Source: Candidatus Hadarchaeota archaeon
GTDB lineage: Archaea > Hadarchaeota > Hadarchaeia > Hadarchaeales > WYZ-LMO6
Reading direction: 5' to 3'
Length of the DNA: 64,000 nt
Assembly: GCA_964509845.1 (NCBI GenBank)
Contig: CAZDZG010000001.1
Span: forward strand, 4,078-68,077
Positions 7,850 through 60,405 of the stretch are shown here, piece by piece. Position 1 is the first letter of the stretch; each line of letters begins with the position of its first letter. Below the pieces are notes generated by a model. That model worked only from the letters and a program-made list of their open reading frames with translations, did not search any database and was not told the origin of the DNA. The position numbers were made by a program, and so were the translations under genes.

Positions 7850-9007
7850 ATGAGGGTGGCAATGCTGGCCTGGGAGTCCATGCACTCCATCTGGATAGGG
7901 GGACTGGGAGTGGTGGTCAGCAAGCTCTCGGAGGAGCTTGCCAGGAGGGGCCACGAGGTTCACCTCTTCACCAGGTGGGCGGAGGGGCAGGAGGAGCACC
8001 AGGAGGTGGGGGGAGTCCACTACCACCGATGCAAGTTCGACCCAGGCCACGACCTTCTCTCCTTCGCCCACAACATGTCCCATGCCATGGTAGCCGCCCT
8101 GAAGTGGGTGGAGGGGAGGGAGGGGAGGTTTGACCTCATCCACGGCCACGATTGGCACGTGGTGGAGGCCCTTCGCTTGCTCAAGCAGGAAGGAAGACCT
8201 CTGGTTTTCACCTATCACTCCACCGAGTACGGCAGGAACGGGAACAAGTTCGGGGAATGGCGGGAGTTCAGGGAGATCTCCGAGAGGGAGTGGTACGGGG
8301 GGTACCTGGCGGACAGGGTGACCACCGTCTCGGCCTACCTGAAGAGGGAGGTGTGCTGGCTTTACCGCCTGCCGGAGGAGAAGGTGGAGGTGGTGCCCAA
8401 CGCCGTGGTGGCGGAGGAGTTCAGGAGGGAGGTGGATCCCGAGAAGGTGAAGGGGGAGTATGGGCTCCCTTCCGGTCCCCTGGTAGTATTCCCGGGTCGC
8501 CTGGAGTACCAGAAGGGTCCCGATCTCCTGCTGGAGGCCATCCCCAGGGTGCTGGAGAGGAGGGAAGCGGGTTTCGCCTTCACGGGAACCGGAAGCATGA
8601 GGGGGGGACTGGAGCAGAGGGCGAGGGAGCTGGGAGTGGCGCACGTTGTCAGGTTCGTGGGCTTCCTCCCCTTCCAGAAGTACGTGGAGCTCCTCAACGC
8701 CTGCGACCTGGTCTGCATACCCAGCCGCAACGAGCCCTTCGGTATCGTGCTTCTCGAGGCCTGGGCGGCGGGAAAGCCGGTGGTGGCCACCGGGGTTGGG
8801 GGTCTGGACGAAAACCTGGAGAACATGGCGGAGGGGATAAAGGTCCCCCCCCAGCCCGACTCCCTGGCCTGGGCGATCAACTATCTCCTGGATTCCCCCT
8901 CCGAGAGGGAGAGGATGGCGGGGAACGCCAGGGAGAGGGTCAAAAAGTTCACCTGGTCGAGATCCGTGGATAAGCTTCTGGATGTTTACGGGAGCATCCT
9001 GAGCTGA
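7850..9007 (+). CDS. Second GT4-family glycosyltransferase (glycogen-synthase-like)
   Basis: IGGLGVVV near the N-terminus and EPFG...G in the C-terminal half. Confidence 0.75.
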   Translation: MRVAMLAWESMHSIWIGGLGVVVSKLSEELARRGHEVHLFTRWAEGQEEHQEVGGVHYHRCKFDPGHDLLSFAHNMSHAMVAALKWVEGREGRFDLIHGHDWHVVEALRLLKQEGRPLVFTYHSTEYGRNGNKFGEWREFREISEREWYGGYLADRVTTVSAYLKREVCWLYRLPEEKVEVVPNAVVAEEFRREVDPEKVKGEYGLPSGPLVVFPGRLEYQKGPDLLLEAIPRVLERREAGFAFTGTGSMRGGLEQRARELGVAHVVRFVGFLPFQKYVELLNACDLVCIPSRNEPFGIVLLEAWAAGKPVVATGVGGLDENLENMAEGIKVPPQPDSLAWAINYLLDSPSERERMAGNARERVKKFTWSRSVDKLLDVYGSILS

Positions 9008-9655
9008 TCAAAGGAAGTACTCCCTCACAAACTCGAAGTTCTTCCTTATTCTTTCCTCCCCCTTCACGATGTTTCCGTGCCCTGGGAGGAGGTACTGGAG
9101 CCTCAGGCTGGAGATCCTCTGGATGGAGCGTGCCAGCTCCTGCTCGCTTCCCCCTGGAAAATCCGTCCTTCCCACCCCTCCCTCGAAGACGAGGTCGCCG
9201 CAGAGCAGGACCCTCAGGCCCTCGTGATAAAGGCTCACGCTCCCCGGGGAGTGTCCTGGTGTGTGAAGGACCAGGAGTTCGGTCTCCCCCCTTCCCACCC
9301 TTTCCCCTAGGTAGGCATCCACCTCGAACCTGGGCACCTCCATACCGAAGTACCTTCCGAACTCCAGGCTGAACTTCAGGTGTTCCCTCTCTTCCCGGTG
9401 GATCAGGATTTTGGCCCCCGAGAGTTCCTGAAAGGGGCGGTTGGCCCCGCAGTGATCGGGATGGCTGTGGGTGTTTACGATGAGTTCCACCTCCCCCACC
9501 TCCACCCCATCCTCCTCCATCTCCTTCAGGCGCCCCCGCAGGTACCTGGGATTTCCCGGATCCACCAGGATGGTGGGATCCCCCTTCACCAGGTAGGTGT
9601 TGCAGTCGCCCGGCCCCCTTTCCGGGTACCAGTAAACGTTGCCCACCAGCCTCAT
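9008..9655 (-). CDS. MBL-fold metallo-hydrolase (~215 aa)
   Basis: HSHPDH motif. The start was trimmed to MRLVGN (ATG at 9655), which overlaps the upstream NUDIX stop as ATGA; the 106-aa N-terminal stretch of the track ORF is low-complexity and out of frame with NUDIX. Confidence 0.7.
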   Translation of the reverse strand: MRLVGNVYWYPERGPGDCNTYLVKGDPTILVDPGNPRYLRGRLKEMEEDGVEVGEVELIVNTHSHPDHCGANRPFQELSGAKILIHREEREHLKFSLEFGRYFGMEVPRFEVDAYLGERVGRGETELLVLHTPGHSPGSVSLYHEGLRVLLCGDLVFEGGVGRTDFPGGSEQELARSIQRISSLRLQYLLPGHGNIVKGEERIRKNFEFVREYFL

Positions 9656-10068
9656 TCCAGCATTCCCTCCTCCCTCAGCACCCTGGCCGTCACCCTGCTG
9701 AGCTCCCTTCCTTTGAGCTCCTCTTTGCTGAACCACCTCGCCTCCAGCACCTCCCCCCCCTTCCTTACCCTGGTAAAAAGGGACTTCCCCCTGAAGCAGA
9801 CTGTCACGTAGTGGTACCTCAGCCTCCCCCTGCTGTCCCTCTCTATGAGGTCGTAAACCCCCAGCAGTCCCCGCAACCTCACCCTTATTCCCGTTTCTTC
9901 TTCCACCTCCCTCACCGCCGCCTCTTCCACCCTTTCCCCAGGCTTCACCAGCCCTCCCGGCAGGGCCCACTTCCCCTTTCCCGGCTCGGATCCCCTCCTC
10001 ACCAGCAACACCTTTTTCCCTTCCCTCACCAGCACGGAGGCCCCCAGCCTAGGAAAGTTCCCCTTCAC
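9652..10068 (-). CDS. NUDIX hydrolase
   Basis: NUDIX box GGLVKPGERVEEAAVREVEEETG. Confidence 0.8.
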   Translation of the reverse strand: MKGNFPRLGASVLVREGKKVLLVRRGSEPGKGKWALPGGLVKPGERVEEAAVREVEEETGIRVRLRGLLGVYDLIERDSRGRLRYHYVTVCFRGKSLFTRVRKGGEVLEARWFSKEELKGRELSRVTARVLREEGMLE

Positions 10069-10849
10069 CCATCCTCTCCTCCAGGACCCTACTCAGCTCC
10101 AGCATCTTGGAAAAGAACTCCCTTCCCTCCTCCAGATCGAAGACGGATTCACCCCTCATCTCGGCCCTTTCCACCGCCGGATCGTGGGGTAACACCGCCA
10201 GCACGGGAAGGCCCTCCCCTTCCAGCCTGCTCACCACTCCTTCCGCTCCTTCCTTGAACTTGTTCACCACGGCAAAGATCCTGCTTATCCCCAGGTCCTC
10301 TCCCAGCTTTTTTATCTGCTTGGCGGTCTCCAGGGCCTTCAGGCTGGGCTCCACCACCACCAGCATTCCCTCTGCCCCCTTGGTGGTTCCCCTCCCCAGA
10401 TGCTCCACCCCCGCCTCCATGTCCAGGATGAGGACCTCAGCCACCCTGGAGAGGTGGTCCACCAGCCTCCTGGCCAGGGCGCTGGCGGGACAGAAGCACC
10501 CCTGTCCCCCTTTCCCTATCCTCCCCACCACCAGCAGCCAGACCCCATCCCTGCACCTGATGCCGAACCTGTCCAAAAGGTCATCCACCTTCGGGTTGAG
10601 CTTGAAGACCAGCCCGTATCCCCCTGGGTAAGCCCCCGTCCTTTCCTCTATGAGGGAGGCCCTTTCCATCAGGGGCACCAGCTTCTCCGGGGGCACCTCT
10701 TCCTCCGTCCCCAGCGTAAGGAGGAGGTTGGGGGAGGGATCCAGGTCCAGCGCCACCACCCTCCTTCCCCTCCTGCTGAAGCCCCTGGCGAGCCCGGCCG
10801 CCAGCGTGGTCTTTCCCACTCCCCCCTTTCCCGTCACCGCTATCTTCAA
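10049..10849 (-). CDS. cooC: CooC/AcsF-type P-loop NTPase (nickel-insertion accessory protein family)
   Basis: GKGGVGKTT Walker A plus a CxC (GCFCP) metal motif. Confidence 0.7.
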   Translation of the reverse strand: MKIAVTGKGGVGKTTLAAGLARGFSRRGRRVVALDLDPSPNLLLTLGTEEEVPPEKLVPLMERASLIEERTGAYPGGYGLVFKLNPKVDDLLDRFGIRCRDGVWLLVVGRIGKGGQGCFCPASALARRLVDHLSRVAEVLILDMEAGVEHLGRGTTKGAEGMLVVVEPSLKALETAKQIKKLGEDLGISRIFAVVNKFKEGAEGVVSRLEGEGLPVLAVLPHDPAVERAEMRGESVFDLEEGREFFSKMLELSRVLEERMGEGELS

Positions 10850-10898
10850 GCGGATACCCTCTGAGTCGCTAAGGTTAAAGCCGCTCCGGGTTTAAAAA

Positions 10899-11312
10899 TT
10901 GGGGATGGAGAAAATCACCCGCATTAGCATTACCCTCCCAGAGGACCTTCTCCGGGAGCTTGACCGCTCCCTGAAAGCCCAAGGGTACGCCAGCCGATCC
11001 GAGGCCATCAGGGATGCCGTTAGGGACTTCCTGACCACCCATCGTTGGCGCAGCCAGCTGGAGGGGGAGCTGCTTGGAGTGGTGGTGGTGGTTTACGATC
11101 ACGAGGTCAGGGGACTGCTGGAGAAGATCACGGAGATACAGCACGAGAGCGAGGGATTGGTAAGGTCATCCCAGCACCTCCACCTGGACGAGAGGAACTG
11201 TCTGGAGGCCCTGCTGGTGAAGGGGTCTGCGGGGGGGATCAAGAAGCTGGTGGACAGGCTGGAAGCCCTGAGGGGGGTCAAGCAGGTGAAGTTGGTGGTG
11301 GTCGGCACCTGA
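10899..11312 (+). CDS. nikR: Nickel-responsive regulator NikR (ribbon-helix-helix plus C-terminal metal-binding domain)
   Basis: N-terminal RHH (ISITLPEDLLRELD) and C-terminal His/Cys cluster (HE...HLHLDERNC). Confidence 0.7.
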   Translation: MGMEKITRISITLPEDLLRELDRSLKAQGYASRSEAIRDAVRDFLTTHRWRSQLEGELLGVVVVVYDHEVRGLLEKITEIQHESEGLVRSSQHLHLDERNCLEALLVKGSAGGIKKLVDRLEALRGVKQVKLVVVGT

Positions 11313-54215: not shown

Positions 54216-55148
54216 ATGAGAAGGGTCCTGCTGGACATGGATCCGGGGATAGACGATGCCCTGGCCCTTCTCCTGGCCCTGCGCTCCCCGGAGCTGGAGG
54301 TGGAGGCCATCACGACGGTCGCCGGAAACGTGGAGGTGGAGAAGACCACGCGGAACGCCCTTAGGCTCCTGGAGGCCCTGGCCCTGCGCTCCCCGCCTGT
54401 GGCCGGGGGATGCTCAGGGCCCCTGATTCGTCCCCTTCTTACGGCCAAGCACGTTCACGGAGAGGATGGGCTGGGGGGAGTGGCCCTCCCCGAACCCAGT
54501 CTGTCCCCCCTGCCCAGGCACGCGGTGCAGGTGATGGCGGAGGTCGTGGGGAGGGGGGCCAGCGTGGTCTGCACGGGTCCCCTCACCAACCTGGCCCTCG
54601 CCCTCCTCCTCCACCCGCGGGAGCTGAGAGGGGCAAGGGAGGTGGTGGTGATGGGAGGGGCTTACGGCCTCTCCCCCTTCGGCCACGGGAATGTCACGCC
54701 GGTGGCGGAGTACAACGTGTACGTGGATCCGGAGGCGGCCGAGCTGGTCTTCGGCTCCGGCCTCCCCCTGCTGGCGGTCGGCCTGGACGTCACCATGGAC
54801 CCCTCGGCCATGCTCTCGCGCCGGGAATACGTTAAGCTGAAGAGGGCCGGGACCAGGGAAGCTGAGCTGGCGGCCAGGCTCCTCCGTCCCCTGCTGGAGA
54901 GGTTCGACAGGGTGGCCCTCCACGATCCCATGGCGGTCGCCGCCCTCCTGGATCCATCCCTCTTCCGGGTGGGGAGGTACGAGGTGAGGGTGGAAACCAG
55001 GGGGGAGCTCACGAGGGGACAGACGGTGGTGGATAGGAGGGGATTCTCCCTTCCGGGGGAGGAATGGAGGGGTCACAGGATAAAGATCTGCGAGGAGGTG
55101 GACGGAGAGGGTTTCCGCCAGCTCTTCCTGGAGAGGTTGATGGGTTGA
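54216..55148 (+). CDS. Inosine-uridine-preferring nucleoside hydrolase family protein
   Basis: DMDPGIDDALAL N-terminal aspartate cluster. Confidence 0.85.
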   Translation: MRRVLLDMDPGIDDALALLLALRSPELEVEAITTVAGNVEVEKTTRNALRLLEALALRSPPVAGGCSGPLIRPLLTAKHVHGEDGLGGVALPEPSLSPLPRHAVQVMAEVVGRGASVVCTGPLTNLALALLLHPRELRGAREVVVMGGAYGLSPFGHGNVTPVAEYNVYVDPEAAELVFGSGLPLLAVGLDVTMDPSAMLSRREYVKLKRAGTREAELAARLLRPLLERFDRVALHDPMAVAALLDPSLFRVGRYEVRVETRGELTRGQTVVDRRGFSLPGEEWRGHRIKICEEVDGEGFRQLFLERLMG

Positions 55149-56068
55149 TCCCCCGGCTGGTGGTGGTGGGAAGCCTGCACGTGGATCTGGTGCTTAGGGT
55201 GAGCAGGCTTCCCAAGGCGGGGGAAACCGTGCTGGGGGAGGAACTGAGGGTGGGAATGGGCGGGAAGGGGGCCAACCAGGCGGTGGCGGCGGCCAGGCTG
55301 GGGGCCAGGGTCTGGATGGTGGGAAAGGTGGGAAGGGATGAGGAGGGGAGGAGGATGGTGGAGGAGCTGCGCAGGGAGGGGGTGGACGTCTCTCACGTGA
55401 GGGAGGACCGGAGACCCTCGGGAAGGGCCCTCATCCTGGTGGAGAGAGGGGGGGAGAACATGATAGGAGTTTACCCCGGCGCGGATCTGGGGTGCGGGAG
55501 GAGGGAGGTGGAGGAGGCCGGGGATCTCATCAGGGGGGCGGATCTCCTCCTCACCCAGTTGGAGATACCGCTCCCGGCCGTGAGGAGGGCGTTGGAGCTG
55601 GCGGGGGGAAGGAGCCTCCTCAACCTGGCCCCCTACCGCCCCTTGCCCGAGGAGGTTTGGAAAAGGGCGGGAGTGGTGGTGGCCAACAGGGTGGAGGCGG
55701 GGCAGGCGGTGGGAGGGGGGAGGGTGGAGGAGGTGGCCAGGAGGCTCCTGGAGAAGGGGCCGAAGGGAGTGGTGATAACCCTGGGGGAGAGGGGCGCCTA
55801 CTTCCTGACGGAGGAGGAGGGGGGAAGGGTTCCGGGGGTAAGGGTGAGGGTCAGGGATAGCACGGGGGCGGGGGATGCGTTCTGCGGGGCCCTGGCCGTG
55901 GCGCTGGCTTCGGGCAGGCCCTTGGAGGAAGCCGTGTGGTGGGCCAACTGCGCCGGGGCCCTGGCCACCACCAGGATGGGCGCCCGGGAAGCCCTCCCCT
56001 TCCGCGAGGAGGTGGAACGCCTCTTCCGGAGGGCGAAGAATTTAAGGGTGAGAGAAAGAAGAAGGGTT

Positions 56069-56083
<15 letters not shown>
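55145..56083 (+). CDS. rbsK: Ribokinase (PfkB family)
   Basis: GGKGANQA and GAGDAF motifs. Probable TTG start overlapping the hydrolase stop; the earlier part of the track ORF is in another frame over the hydrolase gene. Confidence 0.75.
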
Positions 56084-56144
<61 letters not shown>

Positions 56145-56222
56145 CAGTCCCCTTTTGAAACCCCAGCGCCCGGAGCTACGGATGCTGGAGGGAAAAGAGG
56201 GGAGGGAGGAACCATCGCAGAG

Positions 56223-56781: not shown

Positions 56782-59700
56782 TCAGTAGAAAATTCTGGGT
56801 GCGGTTTCCTTTTTGAGCTCGCTCTTGGTGCGGGTGAGGAAGGAGCGGTAGATCTCCTCGGCTTCCGGGGTGAGGGAGGGCTTGACCTTCTTCATGGCCT
56901 CCCGGAAGTGCCTCACGGTCACCTCCTTAGCCTGAAGGTTCTCCCTTAGGGCCAGCATGGCGGCTTCCCTGCAGAGGGCGGCCAGATCGGAGCCCGAGTA
57001 GTGCTCGGTCTCCTTGGCCAGCTGCTCCAGGTCCACATCCTTGGCCAGGGGCATCTTTCGGGTGTGGATCTTCAGGATCTCCAGCCTGGCCTTCTCGTCC
57101 GGAGGAGGCACGTACACCAGCCTGTCGAACCTTCCCGGACGAAGAAGGGCGGGATCGATGAGGTCGGGGCGGTTGGTAGCCCCTATCACCACCACGTTCT
57201 CCAGCTTCTCCAGCCCGTCCAGCTCCGTGAGGAGCTGGCTTATCACGCGCTCCGTCACGTGGGCATCCCCGAAGCCCGACCCCCTCCTGGGCACCAGGGC
57301 ATCCAGCTCGTCAAAAAAGATGATGGCGGGGGCGGCTGTCTTGGCCCTTCGGAAGACTTCCCTGACCCCACGCTCGGAGTTGTGCACCAGCACGTTGCCG
57401 AAGCCCGCGAGGAACCTCTCCGTGGGGTTTATGCTTATGTCGTACACGAAGGGATGGCTGTATGGCTCCCGCCTCTTGGAAACAACGAGATCCCAGTAAA
57501 CATCCCCATCGAAATGTCTCTCGGGGGCCTTCAGCTTTCTGTGCAGTTTCATGTCAGAAAGGTATTTGCGAATCTTCTGCGTCTTTTTCGGATCCATGAA
57601 GCCGATCTCCTCGACAAAGGTGCGCAGGAAGCCCGACCACAGGAACCTGATGCGGTAGCTGATTGCCCCGGTTCGCTCTTTCTTTGGATGGCAGTGCGCA
57701 ACGATGCCGAAGTACTGGAGAAGAAGCAGGAGGTCGTTAGCCAATCGTCTGCTCGTTGAGGAGACCTCCACATACTTTCCGCTGAAGTAGCCGTTCCCGC
57801 TGATGTAACCCCTCAAAAAGGCCGCTACCACGGGCTTCCTTGCCGAAAGGATGGCCGCGGGCACGCTCTTGTGCCTGGCCCCTCCTTTGAGCCCGAGAAC
57901 GTGCTCCATGAAAGCCCTGAGCGGCGGAGAGGAGATTATGACGTCCCTCCCCCTCGAATTCGGTTTTCTGTAGATCTGGACCTTGCCGAAGAGCTTCCTG
58001 CAGAGTCTCGCTATCCTCCCAGCCTCTTTGTCAGACGTGCTCACCCTTACTCCGTATTTCATGTAGGAACCCTCCGCCACCCACAGTCCTAGGAAAAGGG
58101 CAAGATCCTCATCCAGTGGCAACACCCCTGGCAGTTTGTGTTTCCTGTATCTGGAGGTGATCTCCAGCGTACGGGGATCGTACTGGAGGTCAGCGGCCTT
58201 CATGAGCGAGACGAAGGCGTCGAGCTGCATGGCTGCCCTCTTGGTGTACGCGTGGAGGTTCTTCTTGGCTTTTCCCAGGATTTGGGCCACCTTCTCCGCA
58301 CCGAGTTTCTCCACGGCTTTTGCCACAAGGGATTGACCGTTGCTTACGTACAGCTTCAGACCCTTTCCATAGAATCCCTCTATCAGGTTAAACTCCTTCA
58401 CGGACTCAACCGGTTTTATGAACCTTGCCACGGCTATCCTAGACTGATAGGGAACGACCCTATCGGCAGTCACCTCCTCAAAGCCTCCGTTTCTCTTGAC
58501 GAACACGCTGTGTCCACCCGTTACTCGCACCTCTCTCCCAGTTTCGGTTACGAGCACATCTATGTAGGGGGGAGCAGGATGCCTGATGAAATCCACTATT
58601 TTCGAATACTTCATTTGGTAGTCATCCGTGACGGTGGGCGCGTAGAGGTCTCCGTCGTTCTCCTTCTCCACCAGCTCCCCGATCTTCTTCCTCTCCAGCA
58701 CACCATTCCTCAGAACCAGCACTTCCTCGTCGTAAGGCAATGATTCTCCCACCCATTTGGACAGGAGCTCGGGCCCCTTGACGGAGATGAAGTTGGCCTC
58801 GCTCTCCGTGGCCACCGCCCTGGCCAGAAGGGTCTTGCCCGTTCCAGGCGGGCCGAAGAGAAGGATGCCCTTGGGGGGCTCTATGCCCATGCGCTTGAAG
58901 GCGTCGGGATACTTCAGGGGCCACTCCACGGCCTCCCTCAGCTCCATCTTGGCCTCTTCCAGCCCTCCTATGTCCGACCAGTGCACATCGGGTATCTCCA
59001 GCATCACCTCTCTCATGGCGGAGGGCTCCACCACCTTGAGCCCGTTCTCAAAGTCTTCCTTGGTCACCTGCAGCTCCTCCAGGATCTCGGGAGGGATGGT
59101 CTTCTCCTCCAGGTTTATCTTGGGAAGGATCCTGCGGAGGGCGCTCATGGCCGCCTCCTTGCAGAGGGCCTCCAGGTCCGCCCCCACGAAGCCGTGGGTT
59201 ATGTCCGCCAGCCAGTCCAGATCGACGTCCTTGGCGAGGGGCATACCCCGGGTGTGGATCTGCAGAATTTCCTTCCTCCCCTCCCTGTCCGGCACCCCTA
59301 TCTCTATCTCCCTGTCGAACCTACCGGGCCTCCTTATCGCCGGATCCAGGGCGTTGGGGCGGTTGGTGGCCCCTATCACGATCACCTTTCCCCTCGACTT
59401 CAGGCCGTCCAGGACGGTACACAGGGTCGCCACCACCCTCCTCTCCACCTCCCCCGTTACCTCCTCCCTTTTGGGAGCTATGGCGTCCAGCTCATCTATG
59501 AAGACTATGGAGGGGGCGTTCTTCTCCGCATCCTCGAAGATCTTCCTGAGACGTGCCTCGGACTCCCCGTACCACTTGCTCATCACCTCCGGTCCGTTGA
59601 TGGCGAAGAAGTTGGCCCCCGACTCATTGGCCACCGCCTTAGCTATGAGGGTCTTCCCCGTTCCGGGGGGACCGTAAAGCAGCACCCCTTTGGGAGGCTC

Positions 59701-60405
59701 TATGCCTAGCCTGTCGAAGAGTTCCGGGTGCTTGAGGGGAAGCTCTATCATCTCCCTCACCCTTTTCAGCTCCTCCTTCAGTCCCCCTATGTCCTCGTAG
59801 GTCACCGCCGGGACCTTCGCCTCCTTGACCGCCACGGCTTCGGGCAGCACCTCGATCTCCGTGGAGTCCACCACCAGCACGATTCCCGGAGGAAGGGTGG
59901 AGACCACGATGAACCTCATCTCCCCCAGCCCCAGCGGGGTCTCCTCCAAGAAGGAACCGAAGATCTGCTCGATAAGCGGCTCTCCGAACCCCCTCCTGAG
60001 GGAAGCGGTGGTGATGAGGTCCCCCCTGGTAAGGGGCCTGCCCAGCAGGTTCCTCCTCATCACCTCCCCCGGAACCGAAATCCTCACCCCCGGGCTGGCG
60101 GGGGCGAGGGTTACCTTCTTGGCCTCCCTGACCTCCGCCTTCCTCACCAGTACCTTCTCCCCGATGGAAGTTCCGGCGTTGTGTCTGATGAGGCCGTCAA
60201 TCCTTATGATGTCAAGCCCCCTGTCCTCGGAGAACCCCTTCATGGCGATGACTCCCGTGACCTTGCTCCCCTGTATCTCAAGGATATCCCCCGGGTTTAT
60301 CCCGAGCCTTTCGGCGATGTGGTCAGGGATCCTGGCCAGCCCCCTCCCCACGTCGGGCTGGTGGGAGTTCTCGGCCACCGTCAGCCTGACTTCTTTCTCC
60401 GGCAT
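56782..60405 (-). CDS. cdc48: CDC48/VCP-type AAA+ ATPase (N domain, D1, D2) interrupted by an intein in D2
   Basis: Two Walker A/B modules (GPPGTGKT twice). D1 is intact, and D2 reads ...SKWVGE[intein]SERGVREVF...IIFFDELD. Confidence 0.9.
57379..58743 (-). mobile_element. 455-aa intein with a LAGLIDADG homing-endonuclease domain inside cdc48
   Basis: Starts with Ser ([14 protein letters not shown], block A) and ends ...VLVHN followed by +1 Ser. Two LAGLIDADG-like motifs ([13 protein letters not shown] and [14 protein letters not shown]). Locally lower GC and different codon usage. Confidence 0.8.

Follow-up and report, generated by a model that had tools for sequence, protein, structure and literature searches.

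The window analyzed here, a 64,000-nucleotide stretch of contig CAZDZG010000001.1 from a Candidatus Hadarchaeota archaeon, carries on its minus strand an open reading frame (ORF) of 1207 codons (56782..60405) identified from the ORF itself and from profile matches, which encodes the precursor of a CDC48/VAT-type double-ring AAA+ unfoldase interrupted by a predicted intein of 455 residues (57379..58743). CDC48 is an essential protein-unfolding ATPase. The host ORF scored 1121 bits against TIGR01243 (CDC48), for which the cut-off is 802.65, and contained the CDC48_N (PF02359) and CDC48_2 (PF02933) domains together with two AAA (PF00004) and two AAA_lid_3 (PF17862) domains; judged by its N domain, its two AAA modules and the family score, the host is a type II AAA+ unfoldase of the CDC48/VAT/p97 kind. 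The N-extein (residues 1–554; 58744..60405, minus strand) comprises the N domain, D1, and the start of D2, including Walker A (residues 518–525) and the pore-loop-1 stretch K550-W-V-G-E554. The C-extein (56782..57378, minus strand) begins with Ser+1 (S1010) in SERGVREVF and contains Walker B (IIFFDELD), the remainder of D2, and the stop codon. Between them, the inserted segment occupies residues 555–1009 of the same frame; by reverse-complement translation it forms 455 codons without a stop, whereas the plus strand of 57379–58743 contains many stops. It starts with SLPYDEE and closes with FGNVLVHN, so that, with an arrow marking each splice junction, the protein reads SKWVGE↓SLPYDEE on the N side and VLVHN↓SERGVREVF on the C side, and the insertion lies between E554 and S555. 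An earlier note on this DNA had placed an intein at exactly these coordinates and junctions; the minus strand has to be added to that description.

Excision of the intein in silico yielded a host protein of 752 residues that agrees with intein-free orthologues in length and across the junction, and the corresponding empty DNA of the window site was reconstructed as CTCCTGTCCAAATGGGTGGGAGAA↓TCCGAGCGTGGGGTCAGGGAAGTC. The spliced 752-residue sequence aligned with Thermoplasma VAT (5g4f) without a gap across the junction (E=4e-258), and this alignment, with the orthologues, bears out the proposal of the earlier note that removal restores a canonical D2 sequence. The insertion had also been described as lying just after the P-loop, which needs correction: it follows Walker A (GPPGTGKT) by 29 residues and precedes Walker B, and it is only two residues past the D2 pore-loop-1 pair W551-V552. 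In the 5g4f alignment these two residues correspond to Trp541-Val542 of VAT, the conserved pore loop 1 residues of its nucleotide-binding domain 2 (bioRxiv 10.1101/105866).

The identity of the insert was supported by several family models. Pfam Intein_splicing (PF14890) matched with 56.7 bits (cut-off 35.8, E=3e-15), NCBIfam intein_Nterm (TIGR01445) with 35.2 bits (cut-off 24.5), and Pfam LAGLIDADG_3 (PF14528) with 78.9 bits in two stretches (cut-off 22.5, E=4e-22). Partial matches to the NCBIfam models of intein-containing RNA polymerase A'', Tes, PolII, RFC, VMA, and DnaB all fell within the inserted segment, and among PDB sequences the intein matched PI-PkoII (E=4e-21), the Thermococcus litoralis VMA intein (E=3e-13), TFIIB mini-inteins, and PI-PfuI. 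A chance match is excluded by the scores for Intein_splicing, LAGLIDADG_3, and PI-PkoII. Thus, the profile comparison that had been suggested as a check came out in favor of an intein, since both the intein and the LAGLIDADG models exceeded their curated cut-offs and blocks A, B, F, and G were all present.

All residues expected to carry out splicing were found, namely Ser1, T75, H78, D435, H454, N455, and Ser+1, and, with rare exceptions, they are conserved among the roughly 28 relatives that were aligned. Block A (58705..58743, minus strand) provides Ser1 as the first nucleophile, within a pattern that reads S-L-P/x-x-D/E-E in relatives; Ser1 was found in every relative in which the N-terminal junction was present, preceded by W/Y-V/Y-G-E/Q/D/A, and one N-terminally truncated relative (P0148) begins with MAYDEP. 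In block B (58498..58539, minus strand), which the family alignment places at T75-G-G-H78, the His column was invariant and the T-x-x-H motif occurred in all relatives but P0148 (T-T-A-D-H). Blocks F and G (57379..57456, minus strand), located from the same alignment, read VYD435IS...VLVH454N455↓S+1ERG. The reading of Ser1, a His-Asn end, and a +1 Ser given in the earlier note was therefore upheld, as these residues are conserved in relatives and the predicted fold matches solved inteins.

The AlphaFold model of the intein, built on the family alignment, was of high confidence (predicted local distance difference test, pLDDT, 93.4; predicted template modeling score, pTM, 0.93). In the predicted structure, beta-rich segments 1–106 and 415–453 form a HINT fold, and the top PDB matches by Foldseek were all endonuclease-bearing inteins: 2cw7 (E=3e-29, query TM-score (TMq) 0.70), 7qss/7qsu, 7qst, 1dq3, and PI-SceI; the mini-inteins 5o9i, 6rpp, 2lcj, and 4e2t matched the HINT part. 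Profiles and model together support an intein of 455 residues from Ser1 to His454-Asn455. The model places a helical accessory region (residues ~105–205; 58129..58431, minus strand) after the N-terminal HINT half and ahead of the endonuclease core; this region contains helices 120–124, 137–147, 149–156, 160–168, and 174–183 with pLDDT >90, and Pfam gave no match within residues 105–205. A role of this region in DNA recognition is suggested by comparison with the VMA inteins and their accessory domains (PMC8966425). Relatives also share within it a stretch A-x-I-L-G-x-x-x-K-Y-L that is helix-turn-helix-like in appearance.

The LAGLIDADG endonuclease core (residues ~206–400; 57544..58128, minus strand) corresponds to the two LAGLIDADG_3 stretches and was matched by Foldseek to I-DmoI and I-Tsp061I. 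In the AlphaFold model, helices 212–224 and 303–317 are each followed by beta hairpins, which is the arrangement of the LAGLIDADG core fold (alpha-beta-beta-alpha-beta-beta-alpha). LAGLIDADG enzymes contribute one metal-binding acid from each of these helices. The first helix (58066..58110, minus strand) ends in WVAE224G and retains its catalytic acid, E224, whereas the second (57787..57837, minus strand) ends in YISGN317G and has Asn317 (codon AAC, 57793–57795) at the catalytic position, so that an acidic residue ends only one helix of the two. The position was Asp in 26/26 aligned relatives that covered it and in 20/20 genome loci with a readable motif (L011 and L015 gave none). Asn317 is not a read error, because a near-identical allele from a second sample (P0014/L003) shares it. 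The earlier note was thus right that two LAGLIDADG motifs are present, but it missed that Asn replaces the catalytic Asp in the second. As a separate observation, one relative from Aenigmatarchaeota (L014) has lost the acid of the first motif (WVAKG).

In monomerized I-CreI and I-MsoI, double-strand cleavage is lost when a single Asp, in one half-site, is replaced by Asn, although nicking was still detectable for D22N in monomerized I-MsoI (PMC2655683); likewise, the PhoVMA intein is inactive without its active-site Asp residues, and restoring them rescues activity (PMC8966425). By comparison with these enzymes, the endonuclease of the window intein is probably dead or only nicking, and because its second catalytic Asp is Asn317 this copy would probably not home efficiently. 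The domain is otherwise intact, and the isoelectric point (pI) of the intein is 9.8. Thus, we proposed that the domain is, by sequence and fold, a homologue of LAGLIDADG endonucleases that should not be classed as a catalytically competent homing endonuclease.

We addressed the occupancy of the site by searching for orthologues with the spliced extein as query. A near-identical 1207-residue intein-bearing allele (P0014) was found in another sample, and its intein differs from that of the window by 3 nucleotides. Eight intein-free orthologues (P0015–P0022) have 752–753 residues and 93–97% protein identity, and a further intein-free protein (P0024) has 751 residues and 88% identity; all intein-free proteins retrieved (P0015, P0016, P0024) contain an uninterrupted SKWVGESE(R/K)G. 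The gene order deoxyhypusine synthase, CDC48, LigT-like 2'-5' RNA ligase was common to the window and the contigs of the relatives. The intein-free relatives are therefore orthologues rather than paralogues, as they lie in the same gene neighborhood, and several of them were labeled Hadesarchaea or Hadarchaeales by their sources. At the DNA level, one empty allele (L001) showed 89.6% identity over the extein, with an exact junction GGGGAA↓TCTGAA, and the identity of the corresponding protein was 97%; this difference indicates strong purifying selection on the extein. Looking for empty sites in close relatives had been suggested beforehand, and a precise empty site was indeed found in the same neighborhood.

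Two unusual CDC48 orthologues were also seen. One of 942 residues (P0071) carries an insertion of ~190 residues after the D1 sequence HTRGMPI, in the D1 lid region, without intein motifs, which appears from its sequence to be another kind of insertion. The other (P0025, 1007 residues) has an exactly duplicated D1 block and represents either a protein with three AAA modules or an assembly artifact on a 3.7-kb contig.

The same intein was found at the same site in two other proteins. In the hadarchaeal orthologue P0079, the extein is 75% and the intein 73% identical to those of the window, and the intein of P0001 is 65% identical. When one genome per species was scanned, 22 close-clade loci with 42–66% identity were recovered. 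The N-terminal junction reads WVGE↓SLP in every one of them, and the C-terminal junction reads VHN↓SE in each except L029, which is truncated. The archaeal hosts were CDC48 proteins of Hadarchaeales, Iainarchaeota, Micrarchaeota, and Aenigmatarchaeota, occupied at the D2 site. The bacterial hosts (loci L016–L030, for example L016 3001–4365) were proteins from metagenome-assembled genomes of Planctomycetota and Myxococcota, with inteins of 42–49% identity at a site, SKWVGE↓S..VHN↓SEENLR, homologous to that of the window; the one bacterial host that was scanned for domains (L016) is a soluble FtsH-like protein with AAA and Peptidase_M41. An exhaustive search of representatives recovered more distant members at the equivalent CDC48 D1 site (W/Y-Y-G-Q/E↓S). 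The intein of P0006 (source label Aminicenantia) occupies a D1 WYGQ↓S site and is homologous to the window intein at 37% identity. Related inteins also occurred in further P-loop ATPases, which we read as secretion/FlaI-type (GK↓S..HN↓T in Walker A) and RadA-like proteins. Within the window, a tblastn search with the intein matched only itself. Lateral spread of the intein clade, by homing or otherwise, is well supported by these sequences because the distribution is patchy across paralogues and across domains of life, which is much stronger evidence than base composition, and the bacterial members imply that the clade has passed between Archaea and Bacteria. In two Aenigmatarchaeota loci (L013, L014), the CDC48 ORFs have at least 1645 residues, of which at least 1000 lie upstream of the intein, and probably harbor at least one further intein.

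Hadarchaeal CDC48 genes are also interrupted by inteins at three other sites; with the D1 site of P0006 added, four or more further sites are occupied in CDC48 orthologues. The D2 site ELL↓C..HN↓SKW was occupied in P0023/L004, P0088, P0090, P0105, and P0126; the D1 site EIM↓C..HN↓SKW in P0058, P0092, P0109, and P0127; and the D1 sensor-1 site IGA↓S..HN↓TNR in P0028, P0085, and P0122. The extein of P0023, filled at ELL↓SKW, is 95% identical to that of the window. A close kinship between the window intein and the inteins at these three sites was considered and rejected, as the similarity was at most weak and confined to the endonuclease core, with none that was significant for P0092. The ELL↓SKW site lies six codons (18 bp) upstream of the VGE↓SE site used in the window, and both D2 sites were filled together in none of the proteins examined. 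Because only 18 bp separate them, filling one D2 site would be expected to destroy the target of the other, so that the two inteins should interfere.

In the flanking DNA, a tRNA-Ile gene (anticodon GAU; 56068–56145, plus strand) lies between the LigT-like and PfkB-like kinase genes, and its 5' end overlaps the last ~15 nucleotides of the PfkB-like ORF (55064–56083). Between LigT and PfkB, the contig L001 has three extra genes (8892–11144) for a response regulator with HTH_45, a PAS protein, and a rhomboid protein, which are absent from the window (56084–56222) and from L004 and thus represent a local indel between close relatives.

The observed anatomy, residues, predicted fold, empty sites, and distribution fit the established intein pathway, from which the following steps are taken. 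After translation of the 1207-residue precursor, the two HINT halves (intein residues ~1–104 and ~405–455) would fold together, and Ser1 would undergo an N-to-O acyl shift at the Glu554-Ser555 bond, aided by T75 and H78 of block B. Ser+1 (S1010) would then attack the ester to give a branched intermediate by trans-esterification, and Asn455 (Asn1009) would cyclize with the aid of H454 and D435 and thereby release the intein, after which an O-to-N shift would create the native WVGE-SERG bond of a functional 752-residue CDC48. With an insert of ~52 kDa lodged where the D2 pore opens, the precursor is expected to have no activity before splicing. Efficient splicing is then required, as otherwise the gene would yield no functional protein. 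For mobility, the endonuclease encoded by a filled allele would cut the empty site TGGGTGGGAGAA↓TCCGAG, and repair would copy the intein in. The lineage of the window would now be at the fixed-and-decaying stage of this homing cycle, with splicing kept. Taken together, the profiles, the conserved residues, the predicted fold, the empty sites, and the distribution led us to conclude that the element is very likely a genuine class-1 intein, of the standard four-step type, with a LAGLIDADG domain in D2 of a hadarchaeal CDC48/VAT protein, which would have spread by homing and is probably now decaying while splicing is retained.

Several observations weigh against parts of this proposal. The divergence from P0079 is nearly equal for intein and extein (73% and 75% identity), which would fit either a gain by the lineage of the window or a loss by its close relatives. 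The base composition did not establish a recent foreign origin: the GC content is 54.9% in the intein (71.6% at third codon positions, GC3), 62.4% in the extein (GC3 84.2%), and 62.1% as the window mean, but the deoxyhypusine synthase gene next to CDC48 has almost equally low values (GC 56.2%, GC3 77.2%), and the codons favored by the host (AGG, ATA/ATC, GAG) are favored in the intein too, with a weaker bias. The lower GC and altered codon usage that the earlier note had taken as consistent with horizontal acquisition are thus real as regards GC and strength of bias, but they are not diagnostic and constitute weak evidence of such an acquisition. A co-conversion tract specific to this lineage also had to be rejected. 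In the regions compared with L001, L007, L008, and L009 (window 58699–58788 and 57334–57378), mismatches to the empty L001 within 45 nucleotides on either side of the junction amounted to 23% versus 10.4% (p=2e-4); the two empty alleles L001 and L007, however, showed the same excess in these 90 nucleotides (14% versus 5.7% gene-wide, p=1e-3), which indicates a local synonymous hot spot and not a mark of this insertion. Divergence concentrated in this way may be a remnant of co-conversion as inteins were repeatedly gained and lost at the D2 sites, or a result of selection against recognition by endonucleases. In addition, the proposed effect of Asn317 is carried over from other LAGLIDADG enzymes, some of which tolerate non-canonical residues or keep a recombinogenic nicking activity, and splicing was read from the sequence and the model rather than seen directly.

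The last two points bear on how active the element still is. If Asn317 were tolerated, or if the domain acted as a recombinogenic nickase, the intein could still be homing actively in the population, and the intact and conserved remainder of the domain, the presence of E224, a pI (9.8) as for a DNA binder, and the residual nicking of D22N I-MsoI (PMC2655683) would all agree with this; moreover, with only 3 nucleotides separating the two filled copies, any decay must be very recent. We nevertheless regard continued activity as possible but unlikely, given the invariable Asp at this position in the 26 aligned relatives and 20 readable loci and the loss of double-strand cleavage upon the equivalent change in I-CreI and I-MsoI (PMC2655683). 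That the insert does not splice at all, being an in-frame domain insertion or a splicing-dead relic that leaves CDC48 permanently interrupted and probably non-functional, we consider extremely improbable. It could be argued for from a block-F position that is often His and is Arg here (TERFLAG), but the E/Q/H-R/N-F pattern at this place is common to the whole clade, and PI-PkoII has ENF there. The essential splicing residues are all present and conserved, the ORF is intact over 1207 codons, the extein is under the strong purifying selection noted above (97% protein versus 89.6% DNA identity), and a conserved, syntenic CDC48 would not tolerate 52 kDa of inserted protein at its pore loop.

An intein that splices may also be kept for its own sake, as a conditional switch that holds D2 inactive until a cue arrives and hence as a domesticated regulator rather than a parasite. 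With the insert beside the D2 pore loop, the precursor should be inactive; a catalytic endonuclease residue has been lost with the splicing residues intact, as would be seen in a retained non-mobile intein; and conditional splicing has been documented for other archaeal ATPase inteins, for example that of P. horikoshii RadA (PMC5790916, PMC5238726). The intein is absent from orthologues with 93–97% identity and hence dispensable, its junctions contain no Cys for redox control, insertion at a conserved site is fully explained by the choice of endonuclease target, and the proposed cue is hypothetical; a regulatory role therefore appears very unlikely. An extended form of this idea, which we likewise hold to be very unlikely, is that an endonuclease-dead, conditionally splicing gate controls CDC48, possibly through mixed hexamers, and that the pore-loop clade has moved repeatedly between AAA+ modules and domains of life by way of DNA encoding W/Y-V/Y-G-E-S-E. 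If it were true, CDC48 unfoldase activity would be under post-translational control by an intein, and the clade would jump among CDC48 D1, CDC48 D2, and FtsH-like proteases.

On the preferred interpretation of a decaying but splicing intein, the element belongs to a very well-known kind and leaves the current understanding of inteins unchanged. Its value is more specific. For annotation, the intein accounts for a "CDC48" of 1207 residues whose true product would have 752. For the homing cycle, the locus offers a clean natural case from an uncultivated archaeal lineage, with near-identical genes that are filled at this site, empty, or filled at another site, and with an endonuclease that carries one apparently recent catalytic substitution. 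The analysis also defines an insertion site beside pore-loop-1 of AAA+ unfoldases that is used by a related Ser1 clade in CDC48 D1 and D2 and in FtsH-like proteases. Finally, with Ser1 and Ser+1 and thus no Cys at its junctions, the predicted splicing domain, thermophilic and cysteine-free in this sense, has potential as a tool. Within the library searched, no publication turned up that describes an intein of archaeal CDC48 or explicitly this insertion site, and CDC48 is not mentioned in the text of the survey by Novikova (2016). A single passing remark concerns an intein in a CDC48 ATPase of Anaeramoeba, whose similarity to bacterial or archaeal inteins at orthologous sites is weak (PMC10710043).

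Among known systems, PI-PfuI (1dq3) and PI-SceI (1vde, 1lws) resemble the window intein as bifunctional splicing and LAGLIDADG homing inteins, both by fold and PI-PfuI also by sequence, but they show 13% identity in structural alignment, reside in ribonucleotide reductase and yeast VMA1, respectively, and have another accessory/DNA-recognition region. The Haloferacales inteins MCM-a and MCM-d (Turgeman-Grott et al. 2023, PMC10643990) offer a parallel at the level of the host gene, as they occupy neighboring sites in an AAA+ gene with occupancy that varies among related genomes; their host is the MCM helicase and not the CDC48 unfoldase, and for CDC48 the interference between sites is derived from the 18-bp spacing. 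The best match both in sequence and in fold was PI-PkoII, intein 2 of the Thermococcus kodakarensis DNA polymerase (2cw7/2cw8), which likewise combines a HINT domain, an accessory region, and a double-motif LAGLIDADG core, with similar blocks F and G and a block B of ITSGHSLF compared with VTGGHSVF in the window intein. It differs in its family-B DNA polymerase host, its length (537 residues), an overall identity of ~21%, and, in particular, a second motif that keeps the catalytic Asp (GYFIGDGD) where the window intein has Asn. The TliVMA and PhoVMA inteins of V-ATPase subunit A (7qss/7qsu/7qst; Beyer and Iwai 2022, PMC8966425), which match by sequence and by fold, come from archaeal hyperthermophiles, interrupt a P-loop ATPase, and join a LAGLIDADG domain to variable accessory domains; they differ in host and insertion site and in having Cys1 instead of Ser1. 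In PhoVMA both acidic residues are gone, as is DNA binding, whereas in the window intein one residue has changed and the pI is 9.8. Even so, PhoVMA, in which the endonuclease decayed through loss of active-site Asp residues while splicing persisted (PMC8966425), exemplifies the state that the hadarchaeal CDC48 intein has probably entered.

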